Assembly (NCBI GenBank): GCA_028275775.1
Contig: JAPWTZ010000009.1
Span: forward strand, 1-21,623
Length of the DNA: 21,623 nucleotides
Origin: Candidatus Nanopusillus sp.
Lineage (GTDB): Archaea; Nanobdellota; Nanobdellia; Nanobdellales; Nanobdellaceae
Direction of reading: 5' to 3'
Positions 86 to 19,935 of this stretch are shown piece by piece. The notes under the pieces are model-generated. The model saw nothing but the letters and a program-made list of their open reading frames with translations, did not search any database and was not told the origin of the DNA. A program made the translations under genes and the position numbers. Within the stretch, counting starts at the first letter, position 1; each line of letters begins with the position of its first letter.

Positions 86-1330
86 CTAATATAAAATAAT
101 AAAAACTACAACACCAGCTACTATTATTATAACCCAAATTGGTATTGAACTAAACAAAGATTTATTTGATGTTGTACTTATACTTGGTATTGAACTATAT
201 GAATATGTACTAGAAGTTGATGAAGTTGGTGTAGTAGAAATATTACTTATAGTATTAGTTGTTGTAGCATTTGTAGTTAATTGACTTACTTGATAAGGTA
301 ATGGTGTTATTGCCATATATATTGAGCCTTGACCATTTGAAATATTATTTAATCCAAACCATGCTAAATAAAGATCATTATTCAAAATTGTTGCTCCTGG
401 AATTATTGTAAATTGAACTGTATAATTAGCAATTGGTTGCAATTCTGTACTATTCCAATAATATACACTTAATAAACCAGGTCTCCATGCAATTATAATA
501 TATCCATTATTCCATGATATTGGAAATGCACTTTCATATATTGGCAAATTAAATGTTAAATTTTGATTAATTGTTAGTATTCCATTATAAAATTGATATA
601 AAGAATTACCAATAAAACCAATATCTGTTGCATTTACAAATTCAATATTTCCATTGTTCATGTTTATTAAAGCATAAGTACCATTTAGAAATTGAACAAC
701 AACCAAACCATTATTTGCAGAAACAATACCATTAATACCTGGAATATTTAAAGATTTAATAACATTGCCTGAAAGTGTTAATTCTTCAAGTATTGTATTA
801 TTATATGTAAGGGATATTGTAGGTTCATAAACTAAATATATATAATTTCCATCACTAGCATAACTTAATGCAACACCGTTGTTTGTTAAATTAATAACAG
901 GTCCCCAAACATTATTATTTAATATTGAAGCTTGAAGAAGAATTGTTAAATTATTTAAACTATAACTTCCCATTGGCACACCACCCCATAACATCATTAA
1001 TGATCCATTATTTAATTCAACTAATACTGGACTAGATTCTCCTAAATCATTGAAATTTGGTAAAGGTGCATTCATTTCTTCAGTTCCATTAAATACAATA
1101 CCATCAATAATTGTAGCTAAAGATGTTGGTTCTGTATAATAAATATAAACAAGACCATTATAACTAGTTATTGAAAATCCATAACCAAAACTAGTATTAT
1201 TAGTTATTATAATTATTGATGTATTTGTATATTGTTGACCATTTAAATTTGTTTGTGCTATAATTTTTGTACCCAACATTATCAAAGATAATATAAAAAA
1301 TATAACTATCGCCTTAATTTTATTTTTCAT
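86..1330 (-). CDS. secreted, C-terminally membrane-anchored surface (glyco)protein, function unknown
   Basis: 414-aa ORF with signal-like N-terminus MKNKIKAIVIFFILSLIMLGTKIIAQ. Recurring beta-strand-like motifs (GLVYIYYTE, GNYIYLVYE, GYIIIAWRP, DLYLAWFG) suggest a repeated beta-rich fold. Many N-x-S/T sequons. A Ser/Thr-rich stalk (TTNATTTNTISNISTTPTSSTSSTYSYSS) precedes a terminal hydrophobic helix IPIWVIIIVAGVVVFIILY that ends the protein. Confidence 0.8.
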   Translation of the reverse strand: MKNKIKAIVIFFILSLIMLGTKIIAQTNLNGQQYTNTSIIIITNNTSFGYGFSITSYNGLVYIYYTEPTSLATIIDGIVFNGTEEMNAPLPNFNDLGESSPVLVELNNGSLMMLWGGVPMGSYSLNNLTILLQASILNNNVWGPVINLTNNGVALSYASDGNYIYLVYEPTISLTYNNTILEELTLSGNVIKSLNIPGINGIVSANNGLVVVQFLNGTYALINMNNGNIEFVNATDIGFIGNSLYQFYNGILTINQNLTFNLPIYESAFPISWNNGYIIIAWRPGLLSVYYWNSTELQPIANYTVQFTIIPGATILNNDLYLAWFGLNNISNGQGSIYMAITPLPYQVSQLTTNATTTNTISNISTTPTSSTSSTYSYSSIPSISTTSNKSLFSSIPIWVIIIVAGVVVFIILY

Positions 1331-1421
1331 ATAATTTTTTAATAATTATTATTTTTAAGTATTATAATTATTGAAAATTCATTATAAAAAATTAATAAAA
1401 TCCAAGATTTTTATAAATGAT
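1331..1421. promoter_or_regulatory. divergent promoter region between CDS 86..1330 (-) and the 1422.. operon (+)
   Basis: 91-nt almost pure A/T spacer between two divergently oriented start codons, with several TATA-like runs (e.g. ATTATAAAAAA at 1381-1391). Both promoters must lie in or next to this interval. Individual boxes cannot be assigned reliably in this composition. Confidence 0.45.
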
Positions 1422-2630
1422 ATGAAATCTATAAGTGATAGTGTAATAGAACTTATTATTGTAATTATTATTATAATATTTGTAATAATTGTTTTCTTTA
1501 ATGTATTAAAAGGTCTTAGTTATGCTGGTAGACCAGAAGCAAAATTTGGATATGCATTAGCAGGAAGTATAAGTTTTATGGTAAATCCAGTAGCACAGGG
1601 AATATCTGATGCTGCAACAATTGCAAATGAAGTATTATTAGGAGTTGTTGCTGCTGCAACCGTTGCCGGTATATTTTCCGGAATTAAAACAAATTATGAT
1701 GAGAATGTAGAGTTTTTAGAGAGCTTAGGACTTAACGAAGAAGAGATAAAAGATATGGGTACGTCTAATCTGCTATTTAAAGATCTTGATGAGGGTGGAG
1801 GTCCTGCAATAGATGATATTGCATCTGGTGTTGGAAGTGCATATAAAACAGTATTTTTAAATCCTTTGGGTGCAGGTCTATTAGCTGGAACAATTGGTTT
1901 AGATGTTTCATCATATTTCTTAAATAATTTAGCACATGCGATGCAAGCACCAATTTTATATTATTTAGTCCCAGAAGGTGTAATAGCTGTGAATTTAAGT
2001 GATATTAGTAACTCTCAAGTAAATGAAATGCTTAATGATTTAAATGAATCATATGCAAAGAATATAGAACAATATTGTAATAATCCAACATCATCAGAAT
2101 GTCAAAATTTATATGCAACATATTTAGTTGCAAAATATTTATTTTATACATATGGAGAAACATTGGGACAGAGTGTAACTATAGCGGGTAATCATAATGA
2201 ATATGCACTATTATTATTTGATTATAACAGTAATAATAAATATAATGTTACATTAAATGATGTTTTATGTATGTTAGAAATGATGAGATATTATGGTTAT
2301 ATCCCATTAGAAGTTATGTATGGAGATAAAGTAATAGAAGAGAGTAGTAATAATGTTGCTTGTCAGGTTTTAAGTAGTATAGATCCGAATGCAATGTCAT
2401 CAAATCCTCAATATTCCCAGTTTGTATATAATAAACTATTAGTAAATTCATATAAAGTAAGCAAAAGCGGTACTCCTAATCAATTAAGTTCAACTTCAAA
2501 AAATTCCCCACCAAATGAAATTATAATTATTCCAGGTAATTTAGGATTACCAAATGGTATAATAATAGAATATACATATGAAGGAGGAAATAGAGTAATT
2601 CTATTAACATCAATTTCAGGTGAAAGTTAA
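1422..2630 (+). CDS. operon protein 1: N-terminally anchored membrane protein with Gly/Ala-rich hydrophobic segments, unknown function
   Basis: ORF track gives 1371..2630 from a TTG. The first ATG (1422) yields MKSISDSVIELIIVIIIIIFVIIVFFNVL, the same short-leader plus hydrophobic-helix layout as the downstream genes. Further hydrophobic Gly/Ala-rich stretches (VLLGVVAAATVAGIFSGI, LNPLGAGLLAGTIGL). 4 Cys, all distal to the helix. No family recognised. Confidence 0.75.
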   Translation: MKSISDSVIELIIVIIIIIFVIIVFFNVLKGLSYAGRPEAKFGYALAGSISFMVNPVAQGISDAATIANEVLLGVVAAATVAGIFSGIKTNYDENVEFLESLGLNEEEIKDMGTSNLLFKDLDEGGGPAIDDIASGVGSAYKTVFLNPLGAGLLAGTIGLDVSSYFLNNLAHAMQAPILYYLVPEGVIAVNLSDISNSQVNEMLNDLNESYAKNIEQYCNNPTSSECQNLYATYLVAKYLFYTYGETLGQSVTIAGNHNEYALLLFDYNSNNKYNVTLNDVLCMLEMMRYYGYIPLEVMYGDKVIEESSNNVACQVLSSIDPNAMSSNPQYSQFVYNKLLVNSYKVSKSGTPNQLSSTSKNSPPNEIIIIPGNLGLPNGIIIEYTYEGGNRVILLTSISGES

Positions 2631-2660
2631 TTTATAAATTGCAAAGTTTTTAGATTTATA

Positions 2661-2807
2661 ATGGAAACAGGAGAGCTTTTAAAAATAATTCTTGCATTAA
2701 TATTCATTGTATTAATATTAATACTTGTTTTTGTTGTATTCGGACCAAAATTAGGGCTAAATATAAATATATTTGCTAGATATCAATTAATAGGAGGAAA
2801 TGGATAA
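2661..2807 (+). CDS. operon protein 2: 48-aa single-helix mini-protein (not in supplied ORF track)
   Basis: Hand translation gives METGELLKIILALIFIVLILILVFVVFGPKLGLNINIFARYQLIGGNG then TAA. It overlaps the next start by 8 nt (ATGGATAA). TTTATAAAT at 2631-2639 lies ~-30 to -22 from the ATG. It has the same N-terminal architecture as its neighbours. Confidence 0.55.
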   Translation: METGELLKIILALIFIVLILILVFVVFGPKLGLNINIFARYQLIGGNG

Positions 2808-2982
2808 AAAAACACAAGTAAGTACATTTTTAATAGCAATAATATTATTTATTGTTGCATTAATATTGTTAGTAATATTTATGTATTTTTATTTTAAAGG
2901 TGGAGTAAAGTTATTCAATAGTATACCTCAAACAAATGGCACAAATGTTGTAAATAGTATAAATAGTAACAACTATGGCTGA
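2800..2982 (+). CDS. operon protein 3: 60-aa single-helix mini-protein
   Basis: MDKKTQVSTFLIAIILFIVALILLVIFMYFYF followed by a short Asn-rich tail. GGAGG at 2793-2797 lies just upstream of the ATG. The 3' end overlaps the next start by 8 nt. Confidence 0.6.
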   Translation: MDKKTQVSTFLIAIILFIVALILLVIFMYFYFKGGVKLFNSIPQTNGTNVVNSINSNNYG

Positions 2983-3133
2983 TAATGCAATAAACTTTTT
3001 AATATTTTTAATTATTGCAATAGTAATAATTGTTTTAGCAATAATATTTTATTATTATATAGTAGGTCATACTATGCAGGCAAATGTAACAAGTGTAGGA
3101 TATAAAATATTAAATCAATCTGGATTAGGATAA
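2975..3133 (+). CDS. operon protein 4: 52-aa single-helix mini-protein (not in supplied ORF track)
   Basis: Hand translation gives MADNAINFLIFLIIAIVIIVLAIIFYYYIVGHTMQANVTSVGYKILNQSGLG then TAA at 3131-3133. The start overlaps the previous stop (ATGGCTGA). The next gene starts at 3135. Confidence 0.55.
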   Translation: MADNAINFLIFLIIAIVIIVLAIIFYYYIVGHTMQANVTSVGYKILNQSGLG

Positions 3134-3134
3134 T

Positions 3135-4082
3135 ATGAAAGGAGATTTTCTTAGAATAATTTTTGATATAATAGTATTAATTGTATTGGCACTTTTAATA
3201 TACTATATTATTATGGTATTTATTGGATTAGCTATGGGAAATGAGGCAAAATATATTGGATATTTAAATACAATTGCTGATGATATAAATAGTGGAGGTA
3301 ATGGAGAAGTATTTATAAATAATTATGATTATAATTATGTTTTTGTATTAACATATAATAATGGATGGTATTTACAATTATATCATTGTCTTCCTCCAAA
3401 TTTTGTTGTAGGTCTCTTATCTGTTAAAGTAGCATATTGGAATGTTTCTACAATAAATAATGGAAATACTGTTATATTTGCACCGGCATTAGCATTTTGT
3501 AAATTAGTAAAGCAAAGATCATTAAATAATATAAATCAAATAAATATAAACATACAAGGATTAAATGATGAAGCAGGTTTATTAGTATATTCATCTAATA
3601 ATTATTTACAGATATTTCAAATTCTTATAAGTATAGAGGATTCCTTCTTTTCATTAGTATCACCAGCATGGAAATCAATGTTTCTTGCTATATTAAATGA
3701 TACAACAATAACATGTGATAGTAATGGATGTACATTTACATCAACAATTAAAGAAAATGGTAATACATATGAAGTAAATGGTAATATATATTGTGCTCCG
3801 AATCCAAATATAAATAAAAATAACAACAATTTACCATATAATCCATCAGTATGTGTAGAATTATCAGGATTTCCAAGGAATCCTCAGGTAGTTCTTAGTA
3901 ATTTTGTAGGTAGGATAATAGATTCTGCCACATTAGGTGGGCTCATTAGAGAAATCTATGGTATAGACTTTCCAATATTATATTTTGCAGGTTCTTTACC
4001 ACCAACAGTAATGGATATAGATGTAAATAGTAATGGAGGGACAGCAAATATTGATATATACATAGGAGAGACTGTTTCATAA
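3135..4082 (+). CDS. operon protein 5: N-terminally anchored Asn-rich protein with prepilin-like leader (MKG/DF...), unknown function
   Basis: 315-aa ORF. MKGDFLRIIFDIIVLIVLALLIYYIIMVFIGLAMG is followed by a sequon-rich domain. 6 Cys, all after the helix. Starts 1 nt after the previous stop. Confidence 0.8.
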   Translation: MKGDFLRIIFDIIVLIVLALLIYYIIMVFIGLAMGNEAKYIGYLNTIADDINSGGNGEVFINNYDYNYVFVLTYNNGWYLQLYHCLPPNFVVGLLSVKVAYWNVSTINNGNTVIFAPALAFCKLVKQRSLNNINQININIQGLNDEAGLLVYSSNNYLQIFQILISIEDSFFSLVSPAWKSMFLAILNDTTITCDSNGCTFTSTIKENGNTYEVNGNIYCAPNPNINKNNNNLPYNPSVCVELSGFPRNPQVVLSNFVGRIIDSATLGGLIREIYGIDFPILYFAGSLPPTVMDIDVNSNGGTANIDIYIGETVS

Positions 4083-4083
4083 T

Positions 4084-5187
4084 ATGGATATAGATGAATT
4101 ATTAGATGCAATAATAGCATCAATATTTTTAATAATTGTATCATTAATAGGAATAAATTTTCCATATATTGTTGCAAGAATATTTGGTACACATAATCCT
4201 TATTTAATATTAGAGGTTGCTGGTTTTATTACATATTCAACATCAGAACCTGGAAATATGGATGCAGCATTTTTAGTAACAAATGAACCAACTTTTTTCT
4301 ATGAATTTAGGATAATTCCTCCAATACATTCATCTTCCCTGTTCATTCCTTTATATAATAATAATGATTTTTTTGTCAGTATTGGAATATGCTATACATA
4401 TGATTTATGGCAACAACTTGCAGATGATGCATTAAATTCTTTTATAGCTGAAGTAGCTTCATATTTACCTGGACTTAAGAATTTTGGTGTTACAAAACCT
4501 TTACTGGATGTTTTAAATGATGTATCTAAAGCATTACCAGAAATTGCAAAACAGACAGCAATAAACTTTGTTGGTACATATGGATTATACACATTTCAAT
4601 CCGCATTTTTACAATATTCATATGGAAATCATAATATTTGGGGTGATATGTTTAATGCATTACAATCTTCGGTAGGACCTGCTCTATGGTCTACTGTAGA
4701 ATTTTCTATAATGCAAGTTGCAGATATGATATTGGATGAAACTTTACCACCTGGTTGGGATTTTGTAGCTGGTGTTGCATTTAATTTAGCATTTTCAGCA
4801 GCAATTACTTTAGTACAATATTGGCAAGCTACAACAAATCCATATGCGAGTTGCTATTATAATCAATTTATAAGTCAAGGTAACTTTCTTTATATATTTC
4901 CAAATGGAAAGTATACAGTATATCAACCATATTTAACATTGTCAATATATTATAATCCAAATTTTACATTTTATAATGGATGTAATGATTATTATTTATG
5001 TAATACAAGCTTTACATATATTTATAATCCAAATGATAAAAGTCAGGATAATATATTTAAACTAGATTTAGGAAATATAGATGATAAAGGTCAGCAAGTA
5101 TTTCCAGAGTTTATTATTTTATCAAAAGCGGGTTTTGAATATGGAGGCCCATATTTAAATGTATCAATATTACCTTCTAAAACATGA
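4084..5187 (+). CDS. operon protein 6: N-terminally anchored protein with a less biased, Gly/Ala/Leu-containing central domain, unknown function
   Basis: 367-aa ORF starting MDIDELLDAIIASIFLIIVSLIG. Central region (e.g. WDFVAGVAFNLAFSAAITLVQYW) is hydrophobic/amphipathic. 4 Cys. The start is 1 nt after the previous stop and the stop overlaps the next start (ATGA). Confidence 0.8.
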   Translation: MDIDELLDAIIASIFLIIVSLIGINFPYIVARIFGTHNPYLILEVAGFITYSTSEPGNMDAAFLVTNEPTFFYEFRIIPPIHSSSLFIPLYNNNDFFVSIGICYTYDLWQQLADDALNSFIAEVASYLPGLKNFGVTKPLLDVLNDVSKALPEIAKQTAINFVGTYGLYTFQSAFLQYSYGNHNIWGDMFNALQSSVGPALWSTVEFSIMQVADMILDETLPPGWDFVAGVAFNLAFSAAITLVQYWQATTNPYASCYYNQFISQGNFLYIFPNGKYTVYQPYLTLSIYYNPNFTFYNGCNDYYLCNTSFTYIYNPNDKSQDNIFKLDLGNIDDKGQQVFPEFIILSKAGFEYGGPYLNVSILPSKT

Positions 5188-6041
5188 GATCATTATCTTT
5201 AAAAGATATAATTGAATATATTGCTGCAGCGGTTGTTATAATAGTTACATTTTTCATTATAGCAATATTATATGCATTATTTAATGTTGAATCGTATTCT
5301 CAATATACATATCAACAATTTACAAATAGTTTATTAATTGATAGATTAAATTATTGTTTATATGAAAAAACTGGAAATCCATTATTATTATTTTATGCTC
5401 CAAATCCAAATATTATTAATGAATATAATAATATATATCAACAATGTTTTATGAATATATCTGGAACATTTTATTATTTTACTAATGAATCAAATCAGTC
5501 AAATGAATTTATATATACATATTTAAATTTTTCTTATGACGATTATATATATTTCTTTTTCTATAATATTAACAATATAAATTATTCATATTCTTATGAT
5601 CCATATAATCTTAGTTTTGAATATAATATAAGTGTAAATCCAAATTATGTTGCATATAATATTTATAATATAAATTATACATATGAAGATCTACCATCTT
5701 TAAACCAATTTTTAATCAATTACTTCTATAATTATAGTTTATATATATACAATGAAACAGAAAATGCTTATCAAAACTATCAAATTATAAATAATGACGA
5801 AGTATATCAAATATATCTTTCTGATTTATCTGGAGAAACTTATTATTATTATGAAACATATATTCAACCAATAACATCATATTATATTACTTTGCCAGAA
5901 TATGATAGTGGAGAACCAGTAATAGTATCTTTATATGGTGTAGGAGATCTCTATATGAATGGAATATATAATGAAACATGTGATATAATTGCTGGAGGCC
6001 AAATAAATATATCTTCATGTAAGATTACTCAAATAAAATGA
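5184..6041 (+). CDS. operon protein 7: N-terminally anchored Asn/Tyr-rich glycoprotein-like protein, unknown function
   Basis: 285-aa ORF starting MRSLSLKDIIEYIAAAVVIIVTFFIIAILYAL. I count 12 N-x-S/T sequons and 4 Cys. ATGA overlaps at both ends. Confidence 0.8.
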   Translation: MRSLSLKDIIEYIAAAVVIIVTFFIIAILYALFNVESYSQYTYQQFTNSLLIDRLNYCLYEKTGNPLLLFYAPNPNIINEYNNIYQQCFMNISGTFYYFTNESNQSNEFIYTYLNFSYDDYIYFFFYNINNINYSYSYDPYNLSFEYNISVNPNYVAYNIYNINYTYEDLPSLNQFLINYFYNYSLYIYNETENAYQNYQIINNDEVYQIYLSDLSGETYYYYETYIQPITSYYITLPEYDSGEPVIVSLYGVGDLYMNGIYNETCDIIAGGQINISSCKITQIK

Positions 6042-6523
6042 AAATACAAATTGGTTTCTTTTTATCATTTATTGCTGCAGTAATTATTGTTGTAGCTATA
6101 TTTTTTATATTTATATTTAATATTTTTTCATATGGGAATCCAACATTAAATAATATTGCAAGTTTAAATGCTGTTGGTATTGAATATAAATCTGCAAATG
6201 GTTTTTTAGATTCTTTAATTTATTTTGATAATGTAACTGTACCTGCAATAGATATATATGCAGGATTTAATAATAATAAAGCATTGGATAATTATATAAT
6301 AAATGAATTGGCAAATGAAGAATTATATTATTTAAATAATTCTGCTACAATTTTATCATTCTATTTTAATAATGATACAATTATTGGAGTATGTCCAAAT
6401 AAGGAATATATAAATTATAATGTTTATTTAAATGGTAAATCATATACATTCTATGTTTGTCCACCAACAGTACTATATAACTTTTATGTAAATTATAGTG
6501 TTATTAGTAATTATCTAACTTAA
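6038..6523 (+). CDS. operon protein 8: N-terminally anchored small Asn/Tyr-rich protein, unknown function
   Basis: 161-aa ORF starting MKIQIGFFLSFIAAVIIVVAIFFIFIF. 2 Cys (GVCPNK, YVCPPT). The start overlaps the previous stop (ATGA). Confidence 0.75.
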   Translation: MKIQIGFFLSFIAAVIIVVAIFFIFIFNIFSYGNPTLNNIASLNAVGIEYKSANGFLDSLIYFDNVTVPAIDIYAGFNNNKALDNYIINELANEELYYLNNSATILSFYFNNDTIIGVCPNKEYINYNVYLNGKSYTFYVCPPTVLYNFYVNYSVISNYLT

Positions 6524-6554
6524 AGTTAATAATTTTAAAATTTATTGAATTTAT

Positions 6555-8051
6555 ATGAAAACATCTTTAGCACCATTAGCATTATTTATAGGAGTAATAA
6601 TTTTAGTTCTCTTCGGTATATTTTATTTAAATTCTCAGATTCAGCTTGCAACGCAATCTTTAAGATATTTAAGTGAAGATTATATTGCATATCAGGGATT
6701 TTTATATATATTATTTGTTTATATTCCATTTGATATTAGATATAATTTATTAAATAATCTTTTTACAAATATTTTTTCAGGATCTACATATAATATAAAT
6801 TATGTATTTGGAAATAATGTTCCAGATTATTATTCTCAATGCGAAATTCCTTTTTTATTTAATTTAGAAAATATAGAAAATAATGGAAATAATTATAATA
6901 TAATTTATTCATTATGTGTTCCAATAATTCCTTTAAATAATATAAATAATTATCAAAATATTAAAAATATTCTTTATAATATTGGAAATACTTTAAATCA
7001 AGATTTAGAAGAAGAAATTAGATATTTAAATACAAATTTAAATTTTAAACATGCAAATTTTTCATATCAAGATTTTTATTATGATGATAAATATAATTTT
7101 GTATTATCAAATCCTCAATATTCTTTCTTTGTACAAAATAAATATGAAAGAAGTTTATCTTTTCCTCAATTAAATAATCAAATATATTATTCAATATATC
7201 CTTTTTTATTATATTATAATGAATTAATTGATTATTTATACAATCAAACATTCCAATTTATATATTATAATTTAACAAATCAATCAAATTATATATATTT
7301 ATATCAAAATTCATATTCTAATGAAACAATTGGAGATAATTTATACTTAAATTTTTCATTTAATAATACATATTATTATGTTTTAGATTTATATACATCT
7401 CAACTTTTACCATTTGAATATCCAAATATTACAAATGTAACAATTGTAATACCATGTGAATCAATTGGACAGATTGTAAATAATCAATGTATAGTAAATG
7501 ATACATATAGTGAATATATGTATACATGTTTATATACGAACGTAAATTCTTTTCTATCTTCTTTTAATTATCAAATATTAAATGAAACAAATATATTCAA
7601 TGGATCTTGGTATAATGTAACTGGTGTAAATATTATTAATGAAAAAAATGTAAAAGTTGATAGAAATTTTGTAGAAAAAATCTTAGAAAATTATGCATAT
7701 TATACTGATGGATATTATCCAGCTTTAATACCTTTAGATATTCAGATAAATTATAATAATGTAAGTTGCTCTATAAATAATGAAACATTGCAATTTGGGC
7801 CATATAAAACTTACTCTGACTGTTTAAATTCACAAAATTTATTGGAAAATTATTTATCAAATTCATGTACAATTGAATCTGGATGTTATAATGAAAATAA
7901 GATGTTTTATTTTAATGCTACATGTATTGTTCCAGAAACAAATATAAACAATCAATTTACATACAATTATTATTTATATGAATTTGTAGAAATAAATAAT
8001 GAAACAATGAATAATTATTGTGATAATTCATATTGTTATATAATAGGATAG
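6555..8051 (+). CDS. operon protein 9: N-terminally anchored large Asn/Tyr-rich, Cys-containing glycoprotein-like protein, unknown function
   Basis: 498-aa ORF starting MKTSLAPLALFIGVIILVLFGIFYL. Very dense N-x-S/T sequons. 12 Cys, 10 of them in the C-terminal ~210 residues, ending ...NYCDNSYCYIIG. The 3' end overlaps convergent taw3 by 24 nt. Confidence 0.8.
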   Translation: MKTSLAPLALFIGVIILVLFGIFYLNSQIQLATQSLRYLSEDYIAYQGFLYILFVYIPFDIRYNLLNNLFTNIFSGSTYNINYVFGNNVPDYYSQCEIPFLFNLENIENNGNNYNIIYSLCVPIIPLNNINNYQNIKNILYNIGNTLNQDLEEEIRYLNTNLNFKHANFSYQDFYYDDKYNFVLSNPQYSFFVQNKYERSLSFPQLNNQIYYSIYPFLLYYNELIDYLYNQTFQFIYYNLTNQSNYIYLYQNSYSNETIGDNLYLNFSFNNTYYYVLDLYTSQLLPFEYPNITNVTIVIPCESIGQIVNNQCIVNDTYSEYMYTCLYTNVNSFLSSFNYQILNETNIFNGSWYNVTGVNIINEKNVKVDRNFVEKILENYAYYTDGYYPALIPLDIQINYNNVSCSINNETLQFGPYKTYSDCLNSQNLLENYLSNSCTIESGCYNENKMFYFNATCIVPETNINNQFTYNYYLYEFVEINNETMNNYCDNSYCYIIG

Positions 8052-8629: not shown

Positions 8630-9103
8630 ATGGATAGAGAAAAAATAATATTAAATATATTATTTCTTGTATTTTCTATACCAGTAATTTACCTAATATA
8701 TTATTCATATTCAACATATTTTTCTGGAAATAAAATGGTAAATCCTGAAAATGTATATAATTTATATATATCAAATTTTAGTGTAAGTGGAAATTATTTT
8801 TCATTTAATGTAAATAATCCAAATAATTATTCTGTTGAAATATATTTTTCATATTTAGCATTAAAAAATTCATATCAAACATCATCAATAATAACTTCTG
8901 GAAGCTTTTTACAAAATATATATATAATACAACCAGAAAAACATATTACATTACAATATAATTTTGAATTAGATGATCAAACAAGATTAACAATTATTCA
9001 ATGGGAAAAGCTTGGTGGAATTCTATATTTAACATTATATTATTCATCTATAGGAAATAATTCTATTAGTGGAATAATAAATTATCAAATAGAAAAAAGC
9101 TAG
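8630..9103 (+). CDS. N-terminally anchored small protein, LEA_2/WHy-like beta-sandwich candidate
   Basis: 157 aa. The helix MDREKIILNILFLVFSIPVIYLIYY is followed by YISNFSVSGNYFSFNVNNPNNYSVEIYFSYLAL, which resembles the LEA_2 (NDR1/HIN1-like) strand-NPN-strand motif. The start is 5 nt from the divergent taw3 start. Confidence 0.6.
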   Translation: MDREKIILNILFLVFSIPVIYLIYYSYSTYFSGNKMVNPENVYNLYISNFSVSGNYFSFNVNNPNNYSVEIYFSYLALKNSYQTSSIITSGSFLQNIYIIQPEKHITLQYNFELDDQTRLTIIQWEKLGGILYLTLYYSSIGNNSISGIINYQIEKS

Positions 9104-15353: not shown

Positions 15354-15437
15354 GCGGCGGTGCCCGAGAGGTCAAAGGGGGTCGGTTTAGGTCCGATTGG
15401 ATAAGATCCGCCAGGGGTTCAAATCCCCTCCGCCGCA
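15354..15437 (+). tRNA. tRNA-Leu (anticodon UAG), class II with long variable arm, no intron, no encoded CCA
   Basis: Hand fold: acceptor GCGGCGG/CCGCCGC, anticodon stem GTCGG/CCGAT with loop TT-TAG-GT, variable hairpin GGAT-AAG-ATCC, T arm AGGGG-TTCAAAT-CCCCT, discriminator A. Confidence 0.9.
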
Positions 15438-17658: not shown

Positions 17659-19935
17659 ATGAATAAATTAAAATTGTTTTTCTTATTTATTTTAATATTT
17701 AATCTTTTTAATATATATTCTCAAAATTATTCACCAACATTATTTAATATTCCAGTAAGTTCTATAAATATAAATCAATTAAATCTATATAATCTTGGAC
17801 AGGGATCTTATGGTGATTTTTATATTTTATATTCCTCATATTACTTTTCTTATCCAATAAATTCATCAAATCAATATTTAAATATATATTTTAATTCATC
17901 AATTCCTTTATCTTTTTATATAATGAATCAACAAAATTATCAAAATTTTCAAAATGGTAGTAATTTTACATCAATTTATCAAGCATATACAAATTATATA
18001 AATCAAAGTATATTTTTATCTTCAGGAAATTATTATATAGTAATTTATAACAATAATACACAAAATGCATATTATTATTTTATATATAGTTTAACAAATC
18101 AGCCTGAAAATAATATTTATTCTCCAATAGGAGTTTCTGATTATGGTATATATATTAGCAATGGAAATATTTATGGATATAATATTACAACAAATGAAGT
18201 TATTGGGGAAGTTTATTTAAATAGTTTTAGTTCATATGTTGATCCTTTATGTTCTAATAATTTTATAGGAGAGAATTCAGGTTCTATACAATTAAATGCT
18301 ATTTTAGAATTAAGTAATGGTCAATATTATTGGTTACAAAATGTTTTATTAATAAATAATACTGGCGGATATTATGAATTTGCTGATAATGTATGGAATT
18401 TTACATCTTCAAACTCTTATTTATCAAATAATTTAATTGAAGGAAATGGAATAGTAAGTAATTATGATAATAAATATTTTTATGTATATGAAACAAACTA
18501 TTCTAATTTACAATATCCATTAAATGTATATTTAATAATTAATATTACTCAAAATAATTCTTATCCAGAAATACAATTTGGATATAGTTTTGATGGACAA
18601 AATATAAATTGGTACGATAATGTTACATTATTAATTCCATCAAATGGCAATATAGTTATTTCTCCATATTTTACAGGTTCTGATAATATAGAAGATTTAG
18701 AATTGGTTATTGGGGGACCAGGATATGGAACATGTATAGATATAAACAATATTGGTGGTTATTTGGGTTTATATTATTTATATAACAATCAATATATTAC
18801 TCCAGATCCTTCAATATTTAATTATGGTTTTAATACAGCAGAATATTCTTCAAATATTAATGAAAATATAATATCACAAGGATTTGTAAATTTATCTGAA
18901 GGTCCTTTTTATCCAGAATATTTGGGAAATACATATACTTTAAATTATAATATATCAGTTTATTATTCTTTCAATAATTCATATATAAATTATCAATATC
19001 CATTTGGGACAGTTTTTAATATAAGTATCCCAATATATATTTATCAAAATAATACATTATATTTACTAAATAATTTAACAATAAATGGAGAAAATTATAA
19101 TATTAATTATTCACAACAATATGTAAACATAAGTTTGTTAGTAAATAATAATTATAATATTTCTACAAACTATACAGAATATTATTTAGTTATTATAGAT
19201 GATAATATTGGAATAAATTTCTCAATTTCTGGAAATTATCTAAATGAAACATATTATAATAATACATATTCTTTTTATGCAAATAATTTATTGAATATTT
19301 ATTTAAATCAAACATATAATTTTGGAAATTATCAATATTATTGTCCAAATAATATAACATTAAATATAAATAACTCAGAAACTATTAATCTATCCAATTA
19401 TTGTTATTTACAATATCAATTAAATATATCTTTCCCATTTAATTATACAATAAACAATAATACATATTCTGGAAATAATAGTTTTTATATAAATGCAAAT
19501 AGCAATGTATCTATATTAATAAATCCAATTAATTATATAAATAATCAGGAAAGATTATATTGCAATATAACAAATATAACAATAAACATAACTTATCCAA
19601 TGAATGTAGATTTATCTAATTATTGTATATATCAATATTTAGTTACATTTTATACTCCTTTTTTAGTAAATGTTTCTATAAATAATTATATAAATATTTA
19701 TGGAAATACTTCTATCTTTTTAAATAATGGAACTATGATAAATATTTTGCCTTCAGAATATATTTATCCAGGATTCTTTTATAATACAATTTATTATGAA
19801 AATGGATATAATTATATTGTAAATCAGCCTTTAAATATTGTTATACAATTCAATAAAAAAATTCAATATAATTATTTAAATATTGGATTATTAATTGGAG
19901 GAATAGTTGGAGTAATAGTATTTGTTTTATATTGA
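17659..19935 (+). CDS. thermopsin-family (peptidase A5-like) surface protein with signal peptide, C-terminal repeat modules and C-terminal membrane anchor
   Basis: 758 aa with signal-like MNKLKLFFLFILIFNLFNIYSQ. The core SPIGVSDYGIY ... GSIQLNAILELSNGQYYWLQNVLLINNTGGYYEFADNVWNFTS matches the conserved thermopsin block (P.G.aDyG ... QLN ... YW.Q.V ... dN.WN). Two ~73-aa Cys-pair modules at aa ~561-705. Terminal helix LLIGGIVGVIVFVLY. Confidence 0.7.
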   Translation: MNKLKLFFLFILIFNLFNIYSQNYSPTLFNIPVSSININQLNLYNLGQGSYGDFYILYSSYYFSYPINSSNQYLNIYFNSSIPLSFYIMNQQNYQNFQNGSNFTSIYQAYTNYINQSIFLSSGNYYIVIYNNNTQNAYYYFIYSLTNQPENNIYSPIGVSDYGIYISNGNIYGYNITTNEVIGEVYLNSFSSYVDPLCSNNFIGENSGSIQLNAILELSNGQYYWLQNVLLINNTGGYYEFADNVWNFTSSNSYLSNNLIEGNGIVSNYDNKYFYVYETNYSNLQYPLNVYLIINITQNNSYPEIQFGYSFDGQNINWYDNVTLLIPSNGNIVISPYFTGSDNIEDLELVIGGPGYGTCIDINNIGGYLGLYYLYNNQYITPDPSIFNYGFNTAEYSSNINENIISQGFVNLSEGPFYPEYLGNTYTLNYNISVYYSFNNSYINYQYPFGTVFNISIPIYIYQNNTLYLLNNLTINGENYNINYSQQYVNISLLVNNNYNISTNYTEYYLVIIDDNIGINFSISGNYLNETYYNNTYSFYANNLLNIYLNQTYNFGNYQYYCPNNITLNINNSETINLSNYCYLQYQLNISFPFNYTINNNTYSGNNSFYINANSNVSILINPINYINNQERLYCNITNITINITYPMNVDLSNYCIYQYLVTFYTPFLVNVSINNYINIYGNTSIFLNNGTMINILPSEYIYPGFFYNTIYYENGYNYIVNQPLNIVIQFNKKIQYNYLNIGLLIGGIVGVIVFVLY

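Follow-up and report, generated by a model that had tools for sequence, protein, structure and literature searches.

A nine-gene operon of the Nanobdellales

What kind of structure is encoded by nine adjacent genes whose products all begin with a membrane helix and resemble no recognized protein family? This question is raised by positions 1422 to 8051 of contig JAPWTZ010000009.1 of Candidatus Nanopusillus sp. (assembly GCA_028275775.1), a complete contig of 21,623 bp with approximately 24% G+C, which was analyzed at its full length and is referred to here as the window. Sequence comparison identified the nine genes (g1 to g9) as one operon of the thermoacidophilic Nanobdellales, carried by Nanopusillus, Nanobsidianus, Nanobdella, YN1, and their relatives. 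The prediction that the products form an extracellular, membrane-anchored, and probably joint assembly was well supported, and a pilin-like nature of the nine is plausible. With a probability of about 0.42, we favor the reading that the block encodes divergent type IV pilin-like subunits of a single cell-envelope assembly, the machinery of which would be encoded elsewhere.

The open reading frame (ORF) list of the window reproduced exactly the nine consecutive plus-strand ORFs named in a preliminary description of this DNA, with junctions of +30, -8, -8, +1, +1, -4, -4, and +31 nt. The common architecture given there was also recovered: in nine of nine products, a polar or charged start of 4-14 residues precedes a hydrophobic segment (best 19-residue Kyte-Doolittle window, 2.7-3.8), and the uninterrupted N-terminal helix is 19-25 residues long. 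The region had been given a start at 1371, which corresponds to a TTG extension of g1 without ortholog support; this start was rejected, as the ortholog N-termini read MKSISD, MKKGVSD, or MRKKGQE and all orthologs start at the equivalent of the ATG at 1422. The nine genes, one further gene, and the upstream spacer are as follows.

g1: 1422 to 2630, plus strand; 402 amino acids (aa) from ATG; MKS, then a 19-residue helix; lysine plus arginine (K+R) content 4%; 4 Cys.
g2: 2661 to 2807, plus strand; helix-only mini-protein of 48 aa with an acidic N-terminus (METGELLK), one helix, and a basic C-terminal tail (GPK...R).
g3: 2800 to 2982, plus strand; mini-protein of 60 aa; N-terminus MDKKT/QVSTFLIAII.
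g4: 2975 to 3133, plus strand; mini-protein of 52 aa; one helix and a tail with two conserved N-x-S/T sequons (NVT, NQS).
g5: 3135 to 4082, plus strand; 315 aa; MKG/DFLRIIFD, then the helix; ectodomain with 6 Cys, 2 of them invariant; K+R 4%.
g6: 4084 to 5187, plus strand; 367 aa; acidic N-terminus (MDIDELLDA/IIASIF); C-terminal Cys and conserved LNVS sequon.
g7: 5184 to 6041, plus strand; 285 aa; MRS/LSLKDIIEY, then the helix; Tyr/Asn-rich ectodomain with 12 sequons and 4 Cys.
g8: 6038 to 6523, plus strand; 161 aa, pilin-sized; MK-IQIGFFLS; two invariant Cys.
g9: 6555 to 8051, plus strand; 498 aa; MKTS/LAPLALF; largest ectodomain, with 17 sequons and 12 Cys.
g10: 8630 to 9103, plus strand; 157 aa; N-terminal helix; K+R 5%; just past the convergent gene Taw3 in every lineage.
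Spacer: 1331 to 1421, no strand; 91 nt, AT-rich, between the divergent surface-protein gene and g1.

That ORFs of this length exceed chance, as had been argued from the AT-rich composition, was borne out by 300 first-order Markov (Markov-1) simulations of the 6.7 kb region, in which the longest frame averaged 85 aa and reached a maximum of 143 aa. Because simulated frames never exceeded 143 aa, the six long ORFs cannot be products of chance. The mini-ORFs g2-g4 (48, 60, and 52 aa) are too short for a test of length; seven further lineages conserve both their position and their sequence, and the ratio of nonsynonymous to synonymous substitution rates (dN/dS) shows that they evolve under purifying selection.

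Conservation and inheritance of the block

The relatives of the block proteins agreed with the earlier supposition that the organism is an ectosymbiotic nanoarchaeon, here of the Nanopusillus/Nanobsidianus type. Close relatives were labelled Candidatus Nanopusillus, and the 55 relatives of g6 recovered by a word-indexed search were all at least 64% identical, the named ones all being Nanopusillus or Nanobsidianus. Block, gene order, and flanks (Taw3, DnaG, FBPase, AlaRS) are kept, with almost the same overlaps, in Nst1, N. stetteri, and N. acidilobi. The same block was found in Nanobdella aerobiophila (AP019769, 37-44 kb; the locus tags MJ1_0042-0050 were extrapolated from MJ1_0039, the upstream 60-aa gene, from MJ1_0045, which is g4, and from gene order), in strain YN1, in two metagenome-assembled genomes (L013, Nanopusillaceae; L014, labelled Candidatus Nanopusillus sp.), and in L004 (a Logan contig) and L015 (GCA_038838455). 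In the most distant lineages protein identity drops to 20-30%, and even there the series g1, g2, g3/4, g5, g6, g7, g8, g9, Taw3, g10, DnaG is kept. The objection that such a block might lack conservation in related genomes is thereby removed, as it forms one tightly packed unit across divergent relatives.

Outside these lineages the block was not found. When 1.84 billion representatives were searched exhaustively with HMMER and a g6 profile, only ten clusters were returned, every traced one of them nanoarchaeal. In N. equitans, a search made with the g6 profile and one DNA pattern only gave no match, and the block is likely absent from that genome. Profiles of g6 and g1 found zero relatives among 2.9 million viral contigs. 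This last result bears on the possibility that the block is an integrated virus, a mobile-element remnant, or a gene-calling artefact of AT-rich DNA, an explanation that is already close to refuted. Archaeal viruses often carry clusters of small single-helix proteins, and the weak Pfam noise matches of the block proteins point to viral envelope proteins; however, the block occupies one fixed chromosomal site between housekeeping genes in all lineages, integrase, repeats, and tRNA borders are all absent, and the ORFs are far beyond chance length and under purifying selection. The distribution identifies the block as a vertically inherited, lineage-specific operon and not a mobile element.

Within the block, conservation is concentrated in particular segments. 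The product of g1 carries a second hydrophobic segment at residues 67-85 and possibly a third, followed by a variable acidic stretch and a conserved C-terminal domain with the motifs SY(S/A)GR..AKFGYAL, Q.PIL.YL.PEG, and YGETLGQSV.IAG; the N. acidilobi ortholog Nps_00220 was listed with three transmembrane segments (PMC4935971 Suppl. Data 1). In g6, residues 1-57 are almost invariant (NPYL.LE.AGF.TYSTSEPG), and the central region 108-251 is helical and hydrophobic, with an extra hydrophobic helix at 226-244. Invariant cysteines of g7 are C58, C88, and C279. Among the mini-proteins, g2 is kept in Nanobdella, YN1, L004, and L015, and g3, with GGAGG 4 nt upstream of its start and a conserved NGT sequon in its tail, has paralogs in g4 and in a 60-62-aa gene that lies upstream in relatives.

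In two of the divergent lineages, a single ORF spans g3 and g4 (L004, 5544-5888, 114 aa; L015, 2596-2922, 108 aa), with an in-frame Met exactly at the start of the g4-like part (MKRSDTSISF...). This arrangement represents either a two-helix fusion or internal initiation.

The upstream paralog belongs to an overlapping pair seen in relatives, in which the 60-62-aa helix-only gene is followed by one for an N-terminally anchored protein of 778-869 aa (500 aa in L004). The pair lies at 1892-4686 in L001, 3935-6486 in L003, 3656-6177 in L011, and 2111-4100 in L004; the window contig ends before this region. In L004, the pair and two mini-genes (64 and 40 aa) adjoin g1 directly, giving approximately twelve consecutive genes of this kind. 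A homolog of the upstream 62-aa mini-protein, P0253, is annotated in the 607,503-bp record of "Candidatus Nanopusillus massiliensis", and the system may also be present in this reportedly human-associated organism.

Location of the proteins

The preliminary description had placed the large domains outside the cell, and composition, cysteines, and sequons all agreed. The K+R content is 2-7% in all nine products and in g10; cytoplasmic proteins encoded in the window have 12-25%, and its two surface proteins with Sec signals have 1.7% and 0.8%. For an organism that grows near pH 3 (PMC4935971), such a low K+R content marks a protein as exposed to the medium. Cysteine counts of the six large proteins (g1, g5-g9) are 4, 6, 4, 4, 2, and 12, all even, with invariant Cys columns across lineages. 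The further claim that the large domains are packed with sequons held for g7 (12, with 4.5 expected) and g9 (17, with 9.5 expected), and to a slight degree for g8 (4, with 2.4 expected); it failed for g1, g5, and g6, which have 2-3 sequons each, at or under the compositional expectation. Conserved sequons were the C-terminal LNVS of g6 and those in the tails of g3 and g4.

The mode of anchoring differs from that of Sec-secreted surface glycoproteins such as those at 86-1330 and 17659-19935, a class marked by a cleavable signal with an h-region of 10-15 residues and a small-x-small c-region and, in many cases, by a C-terminal anchor. The nine do not fit this form: no AxA-type c-region or signal-peptidase I site was found in their N-termini, and no C-terminal anchor was found. 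We conclude that the bulk of each protein is predicted to lie outside the cell, held by an uncleaved or N-terminally trimmed helix.

An opposite orientation was considered, in which the nine would form a membrane complex working in or under the membrane, in transport, secretion, lipid uptake, or division, with substantial parts in the cytoplasm. The acidic N-termini of g2 and g6, with basic residues after the helix, would allow some segments to face inward, and g1 has three basic residues after its first helix along with an acidic loop; these organisms must also import host lipids and metabolites almost without known transporters (PMC4935971). Nonetheless, the K+R content, the conserved even cysteines, and the conserved sequons, including LNVS of g6, are unlike the cytoplasmic domains of the window, and the block holds no nucleotide-binding or polytopic channel-like protein, making a complex of this type decidedly improbable.

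Family, fold, and literature searches

No family had been recognized in any of the nine at first reading, and none emerged from searches of Pfam, NCBIfam, and PDB sequences. For the nine proteins and 49 orthologs from divergent lineages, Pfam and NCBIfam yielded only sub-threshold noise from single transmembrane helices, and sequence profile searches of the PDB with g1, g5, g6, g7, g8, and g9 gave nothing with E < 0.2. By these results, none of the nine can be placed in a known family. The N. acidilobi orthologs, Nps_00220-00255 (equivalent to Nst1_038-047), are likewise without arCOG assignment (PMC4935971 Suppl. Data 1), and the locus tags of the block go unmentioned in the searchable literature.

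Identical copies of all ten proteins queried are present in NCBI and/or JGI (JGI and Logan for g2 and g4) under uninformative or spurious names. The automatic JGI names of the mini-proteins vary from contig to contig (FtsL, FliL, PerM, RcsB regulator, cobalt-binding protein) and are untrustworthy, as they rest on single-helix similarity alone; FtsL (for g4), FliL, and PerM were rejected on this ground. DUF7554 was rejected for g2, the match being weak (E 0.0016) and below the family cut-off.

Pilin-like features of the N-termini

The likeness to type IV pilin operons that had been drawn in the preliminary description stood in part. It was sustained by a small residue after the basic run and by N-termini that are the most conserved part of the proteins, and not by the strict cleavage motif, which occurs at chance level, nor by pilin profiles, of which none matched. 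Across lineages, the N-termini follow the pattern M-(K/R)n-(G/A/S)-polar-hydrophobic. Among lineage-level orthologs of g1, g3, g4, g5, g7, g8, and g9, 26 of 36 (72%) have G, A, or S after the first basic run, compared with 5 of 34 (15%) products of flanking genes (Fisher p ~1e-6, a value that overstates the difference, as the orthologs are related and not independent and the controls are mostly cytoplasmic). Within a family the position may hold G, A, or S, which would be expected under selection for small size. The orthologs of g1 in seven other lineages start MKKG, MRKKG, MKRA, or MRNSG, with MKKG/VSD and MRKKG/QES among them. For g3, orthologs begin HKG/QISTFLV, KRS/QVS, or DKA/LVA (more fully, MAYHKG/QISTFLVAI and MAADKA/LVAII, both of classic form). 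Further examples are MKG/DFL and MKRA/TES in g5, MRS/LSL and MRA/LGL in g7, KKS/QIGFF and the classic MKG/QLSF in g8, and, also classic, MRKRG/SLAP in the YN1 ortholog of g9.

All-against-all comparison of the family profiles gave alignments limited to the first ~30 residues and in register from residue 1, with no paralogy among the ectodomains. Conservation is higher in residues 1-35 than in the remainder of the protein in five of the six large families, namely, g1, g5, g6, g7, and g9 (the last in most comparisons). In a low-confidence AlphaFold2 model of g8, an N-terminal helix of ~55 residues (2-31 and 35-57, with a kink at GNP) leads into beta strands, an arrangement that may point toward the pilin fold, in which a helix of ~50 residues packs on a beta-sheet domain.

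Published surveys leave room for such a set of genes. Major and extra pilin genes commonly lie outside type IV pilus (T4P) loci (PMC4858521), and Makarova et al. reported a nanoarchaeal type IV filament (TFF) ATPase with pilins that "could not be identified" (PMC4858521). For N. acidilobi, an extra ATPase, a platform protein, and two TadC genes are listed away from the archaellum (PMC4935971 Suppl. Data 1), and helix-only major pilins exist in the form of Epd arCOG06620 and bacterial Tad (bioRxiv 10.64898/2026.04.22.720090). Nanobdella also bears a second, unassigned kind of appendage (PMC11104419).

A number of observations weigh against the pilin-like interpretation. The strict FlaFind pattern, [KRDE][GA][ALIFQMVED][ILMVTAS]x3, which the preliminary description had put forward as a check, matched 11 of 75 orthologs (3 of g3, 6 of g6, 1 of g5, and 1 of g9), which is about chance. 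In the window itself, g3 has T and g8 has I at the expected places, g4 has no basic residue there, and the N-termini of g2 and g6 are acidic. Profiles of pilins, archaellins, and class III signals gave zero matches in all nine families in any lineage, and a small-protein profile drew 112 matches, consisting only of nanoarchaeal orphans with zero annotated pilins. AlphaFold2 models of g6 (30 sequences; predicted local distance difference test [pLDDT] 49) and g8 (25 sequences; pLDDT 61) were too poor for fold assignment, and Foldseek found nothing below E 0.2 in PDB and BFVD for the g8 model. The single g3/g4 ORF of L004 and L015 would yield a two-helix hairpin unless the internal start is used.

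The machinery is also missing from view. As had been stated for the window, no assembly ATPase, platform protein, or peptidase is present in it, and none was found in the recovered flanks (up to 10 kb) of Nst1, N. stetteri, Nanobdella, and L004. The A24 prepilin peptidase (PibD/FlaK/EppA) was reported missing from two nanoarchaea (PMC4858521), and none is listed for N. acidilobi (PMC4935971 Suppl. Data 1). Nps_00220-00255 went undetected in the N. acidilobi shotgun proteome (PMC4935971 Suppl. Data 1), a non-detection that is weak evidence because the block proteins have very few tryptic sites. Part of this conflict would be resolved if the N-termini were relic class III signals, with leaders cut to two or three residues and the peptidase lost or unrecognizable.

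Comparison with known systems

Among the known systems closest to the block are archaeal T4P loci with several minor pilins, such as the 11-gene Epd cluster of Methanococcus maripaludis and Aap/Ups of Sulfolobus. In both, co-transcribed genes encode proteins with a short basic N-terminus and a helix of ~20 residues, conservation is strongest at the N-terminus and gives way to divergent, often glycosylated ectodomains, and large adhesin-like members occur; pilin genes of T4P loci may also sit apart from the ATPase locus (PMC4858521), as in the block. Unlike those loci, the block has no nearby ATPase, TadC-type platform, or A24 peptidase and no similarity to pilin arCOG or Pfam families, its cleavage motif is degenerate, two of its N-termini are acidic, and g1 has extra membrane segments. 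The build of g2, g3, and g4 (48-60 aa), a single helix with a short tail, is shared with the helix-only major pilins (Epd arCOG06620; Flp/Tad). The mini-proteins differ in showing no sequence relation to these and no G/XXXXEY-type Flp motif, in carrying sequons in their tails, and in forming a row of three different proteins plus an upstream paralog, compared with one abundant pilin.

In bacteria, the pseudopilin operon of type II secretion (gspG-K, then the bitopic gspL and gspM) similarly consists of approximately nine overlapping genes for single-helix membrane proteins, which jointly form a short fiber and a membrane base. However, that operon belongs to another domain of life, and the block lacks its secretin, ATPase, GspF, any homology, and the bacterial pilin/pseudopilin sequence G-F-x-x-x-E (G at -1, F/M at +1, E at +5), which is absent from the block N-termini. 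Nor does the block fit DNA transfer systems of the Ced/Ted or conjugation type, as neither block nor flanks encode a VirB4/HerA-type ATPase or a polytopic VirB6-like CedA, and the Ced/Ted pilin is a two-helix VirB2-like protein, in contrast to the mini-proteins with one helix each. Of known systems, the nearest description of the block is a divergent one of the type IV filament kind.

A possible envelope or attachment-organelle complex

Much of what supports an extracellular, co-expressed, and co-evolving set fits a different structure equally well, namely, a non-filamentous complex rooted in the membrane, such as the layers, portal, or barrier of the attachment organelle, or a scaffold from membrane to surface layer (S-layer). 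The helices would then be plain signal-anchors bundling in the membrane. We regard such an envelope or attachment-organelle module as doubtful, if nearly as likely as the pilin-like set. The lack of support from pilin profiles or folds, the absence of nearby TFF genes, and the extra hydrophobic segments of g1 and g6 all favor it. In addition, cryo-electron tomography (cryo-ET) has revealed an attachment organelle, made up of a cone, a portal, a barrier, and a tube, in N. aerobiophila and YN1 (PMC11104419, PMC11420986), which carry the block, and also in YN4. For the cone, a repeating monomer stacked in layers has been described (bioRxiv 10.64898/2026.06.04.730037), and small single-helix proteins can build archaeal cones, for example, the virus-associated pyramids (named in PMC11420986). 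The protein of these pyramids in Sulfolobus viruses, PVAP, is small, has one N-terminal membrane helix, and self-assembles into a cone in the archaeal envelope (PMC11420986). By description the block is set apart from PVAP, a viral single gene that makes an exit structure, as the block lies on the chromosome and has no relatives among the viral contigs searched.

The organelle, which is envelope-embedded, built of repeating units, and known from cryo-ET only, is linked to the block by co-occurrence only, in a lineage where archaella and other appendages co-occur too. A second, rough type of appendage was seen on Nanobdella (PMC11104419), and the cryo-ET papers of 2024-2026 also show thorned archaella and nanotubes, with no genes assigned to these structures. 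Co-occurrence in N. aerobiophila and YN1 is a lead, not evidence. The YN4 preprint describes YN4_047 as type IV pilus-related; its number falls within the range of the Nanobdella block (MJ1_0042-0050), which may be a coincidence. Furthermore, a plain anchor offers no obvious explanation for the small-residue rule or for the Q conserved in g3 and g8.

In its strongest form, this explanation would assign the nine genes, together with the upstream paralogous pair, to the structure of the Nanobdellales attachment organelle, which would be a machine for piercing the host that has no known homologs. The host envelope would be opened by a portal and tube made of the larger, disulfide-bonded glycoproteins, and the stacked layers of the cone would arise by polymerization of helix-only mini-proteins. 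We consider this specific assignment unlikely.

Rate of change

Compared with N. acidilobi and N. stetteri (dS of approximately 0.13-0.34 for all genes), dN/dS was 0.29-0.85 in the six large proteins, 0.10-0.59 in the mini-proteins (g2, 0.17; g3, 0.10-0.21; g4, 0.29-0.59), and 0.03-0.07 in DnaG and FBPase. The ratio for g5 was 0.67-0.83. Identity to Nst1 was 75-90% for the nine and 94-97% for housekeeping genes. Rapid ectodomain evolution of this kind is in line with a function at the cell surface, where the proteins may face the host. Compared with N. stetteri, g1 and g5 reached 0.83-0.85, with neighbors of the same dS at 0.03-0.07.

These rates could also be expected if the genes were co-transcribed but encoded a loose set of anchored surface glycoproteins and membrane peptides that serve as decor, variable antigens, or host-range determinants and form no single machine. 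The mutually unrelated ectodomains, dN/dS values of up to 0.85, the variation among lineages of the adjoining divergent surface-protein gene, and the richness of nanoarchaeal genomes in orphan single-helix proteins (PMC4935971 Suppl. Data 1) are in keeping with a loose set. We nevertheless judge it improbable, as the number of genes, their order, and their overlaps persist from Nanopusillus through to L004 and L015 even as protein identity drops to 20-30%, three helix-only proteins have no ectodomain to display and yet are under purifying selection, and N-terminal helices that are more conserved than the ectodomains imply specific contacts between helices.

Proposed assembly of the pilin-like subunits

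Under the favored interpretation, that of divergent type IV pilin-like subunits, the N-termini would be divergent class III (pilin-type) signal-anchors, and the helices would pack side by side into the core of a short fiber or membrane-rooted stalk. Most of this core could be supplied by g3 and g4, and perhaps g2, acting as helix-only pilins of the Flp/Epd type, with g8 as a conventional small pilin. The products of g5, g7, and g9 would be minor or distal subunits, whose fast-evolving, disulfide-bonded, glycosylated ectodomains may bind the host surface; g9 is the candidate for a distal or adhesive subunit. A membrane base would be formed by g1, itself a candidate base subunit, and g6, the two products in which additional hydrophobic segments occur together with highly conserved motifs. 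Assembly would be driven by a secretion ATPase and platform pair encoded elsewhere in the genome.

The Nanobdellales live attached to another archaeon and draw on the host cytoplasm. The block, being conserved, lineage-specific, fast-evolving, and predicted to be extracellular, is a concrete candidate for one missing nanoarchaeal gene set. Two of its carriers, N. aerobiophila and YN1, are in culture, which makes the idea directly testable. If the pilin-like interpretation is true, the block would reveal the extent to which class III signals may diverge in a lineage without a recognizable peptidase of the usual kind.

Neighboring genes and other features of the window

The gene g10 may belong to the nine-gene system. 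It terminates 4 nt within the 3' end of DnaG and is better conserved than the nine, with 92-94% identity to the N. stetteri orthologs and a dN/dS of 0.13-0.24. Between the block and g10, the 3' ends of g9 (plus strand) and Taw3 (minus strand) overlap convergently by 24 nt at 8028-8051, and a convergent overlap of about 24-29 nt is also kept in Nst1, Nanobdella, and YN1.

On the other side of the block, the surface-protein gene at 86-1330 (minus strand) is divergent from g1, as had been noted; its 414-aa product has a Sec-type signal, 17 sequons, and a C-terminal anchor. The spacer at 1331-1421 is presumed to be a shared promoter region for both divergent genes. The rest of the window encodes TYW3 (Taw3), DnaG, FBP aldolase/phosphatase, ribosomal stalk protein L12, a coiled-coil protein, AlaRS, four tRNAs, a thermopsin-like surface protease, and an ICMT-like methyltransferase.

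The thermopsin-domain protein at 17659-19935 (plus strand, 758 aa) has a Sec-type signal, 42 sequons, a K+R content of 0.8%, and a C-terminal anchor. Kato et al. proposed that thermopsin-like proteins attack the host S-layer. Among the tRNAs, the tRNA-Leu at 15354-15437 (plus strand) was found by ARAGORN and missed by a whole-window Rfam scan at the gathering threshold; it scored 52 bits in a local scan, indicating that the miss was an effect of filtering and that the tRNA is not odd.

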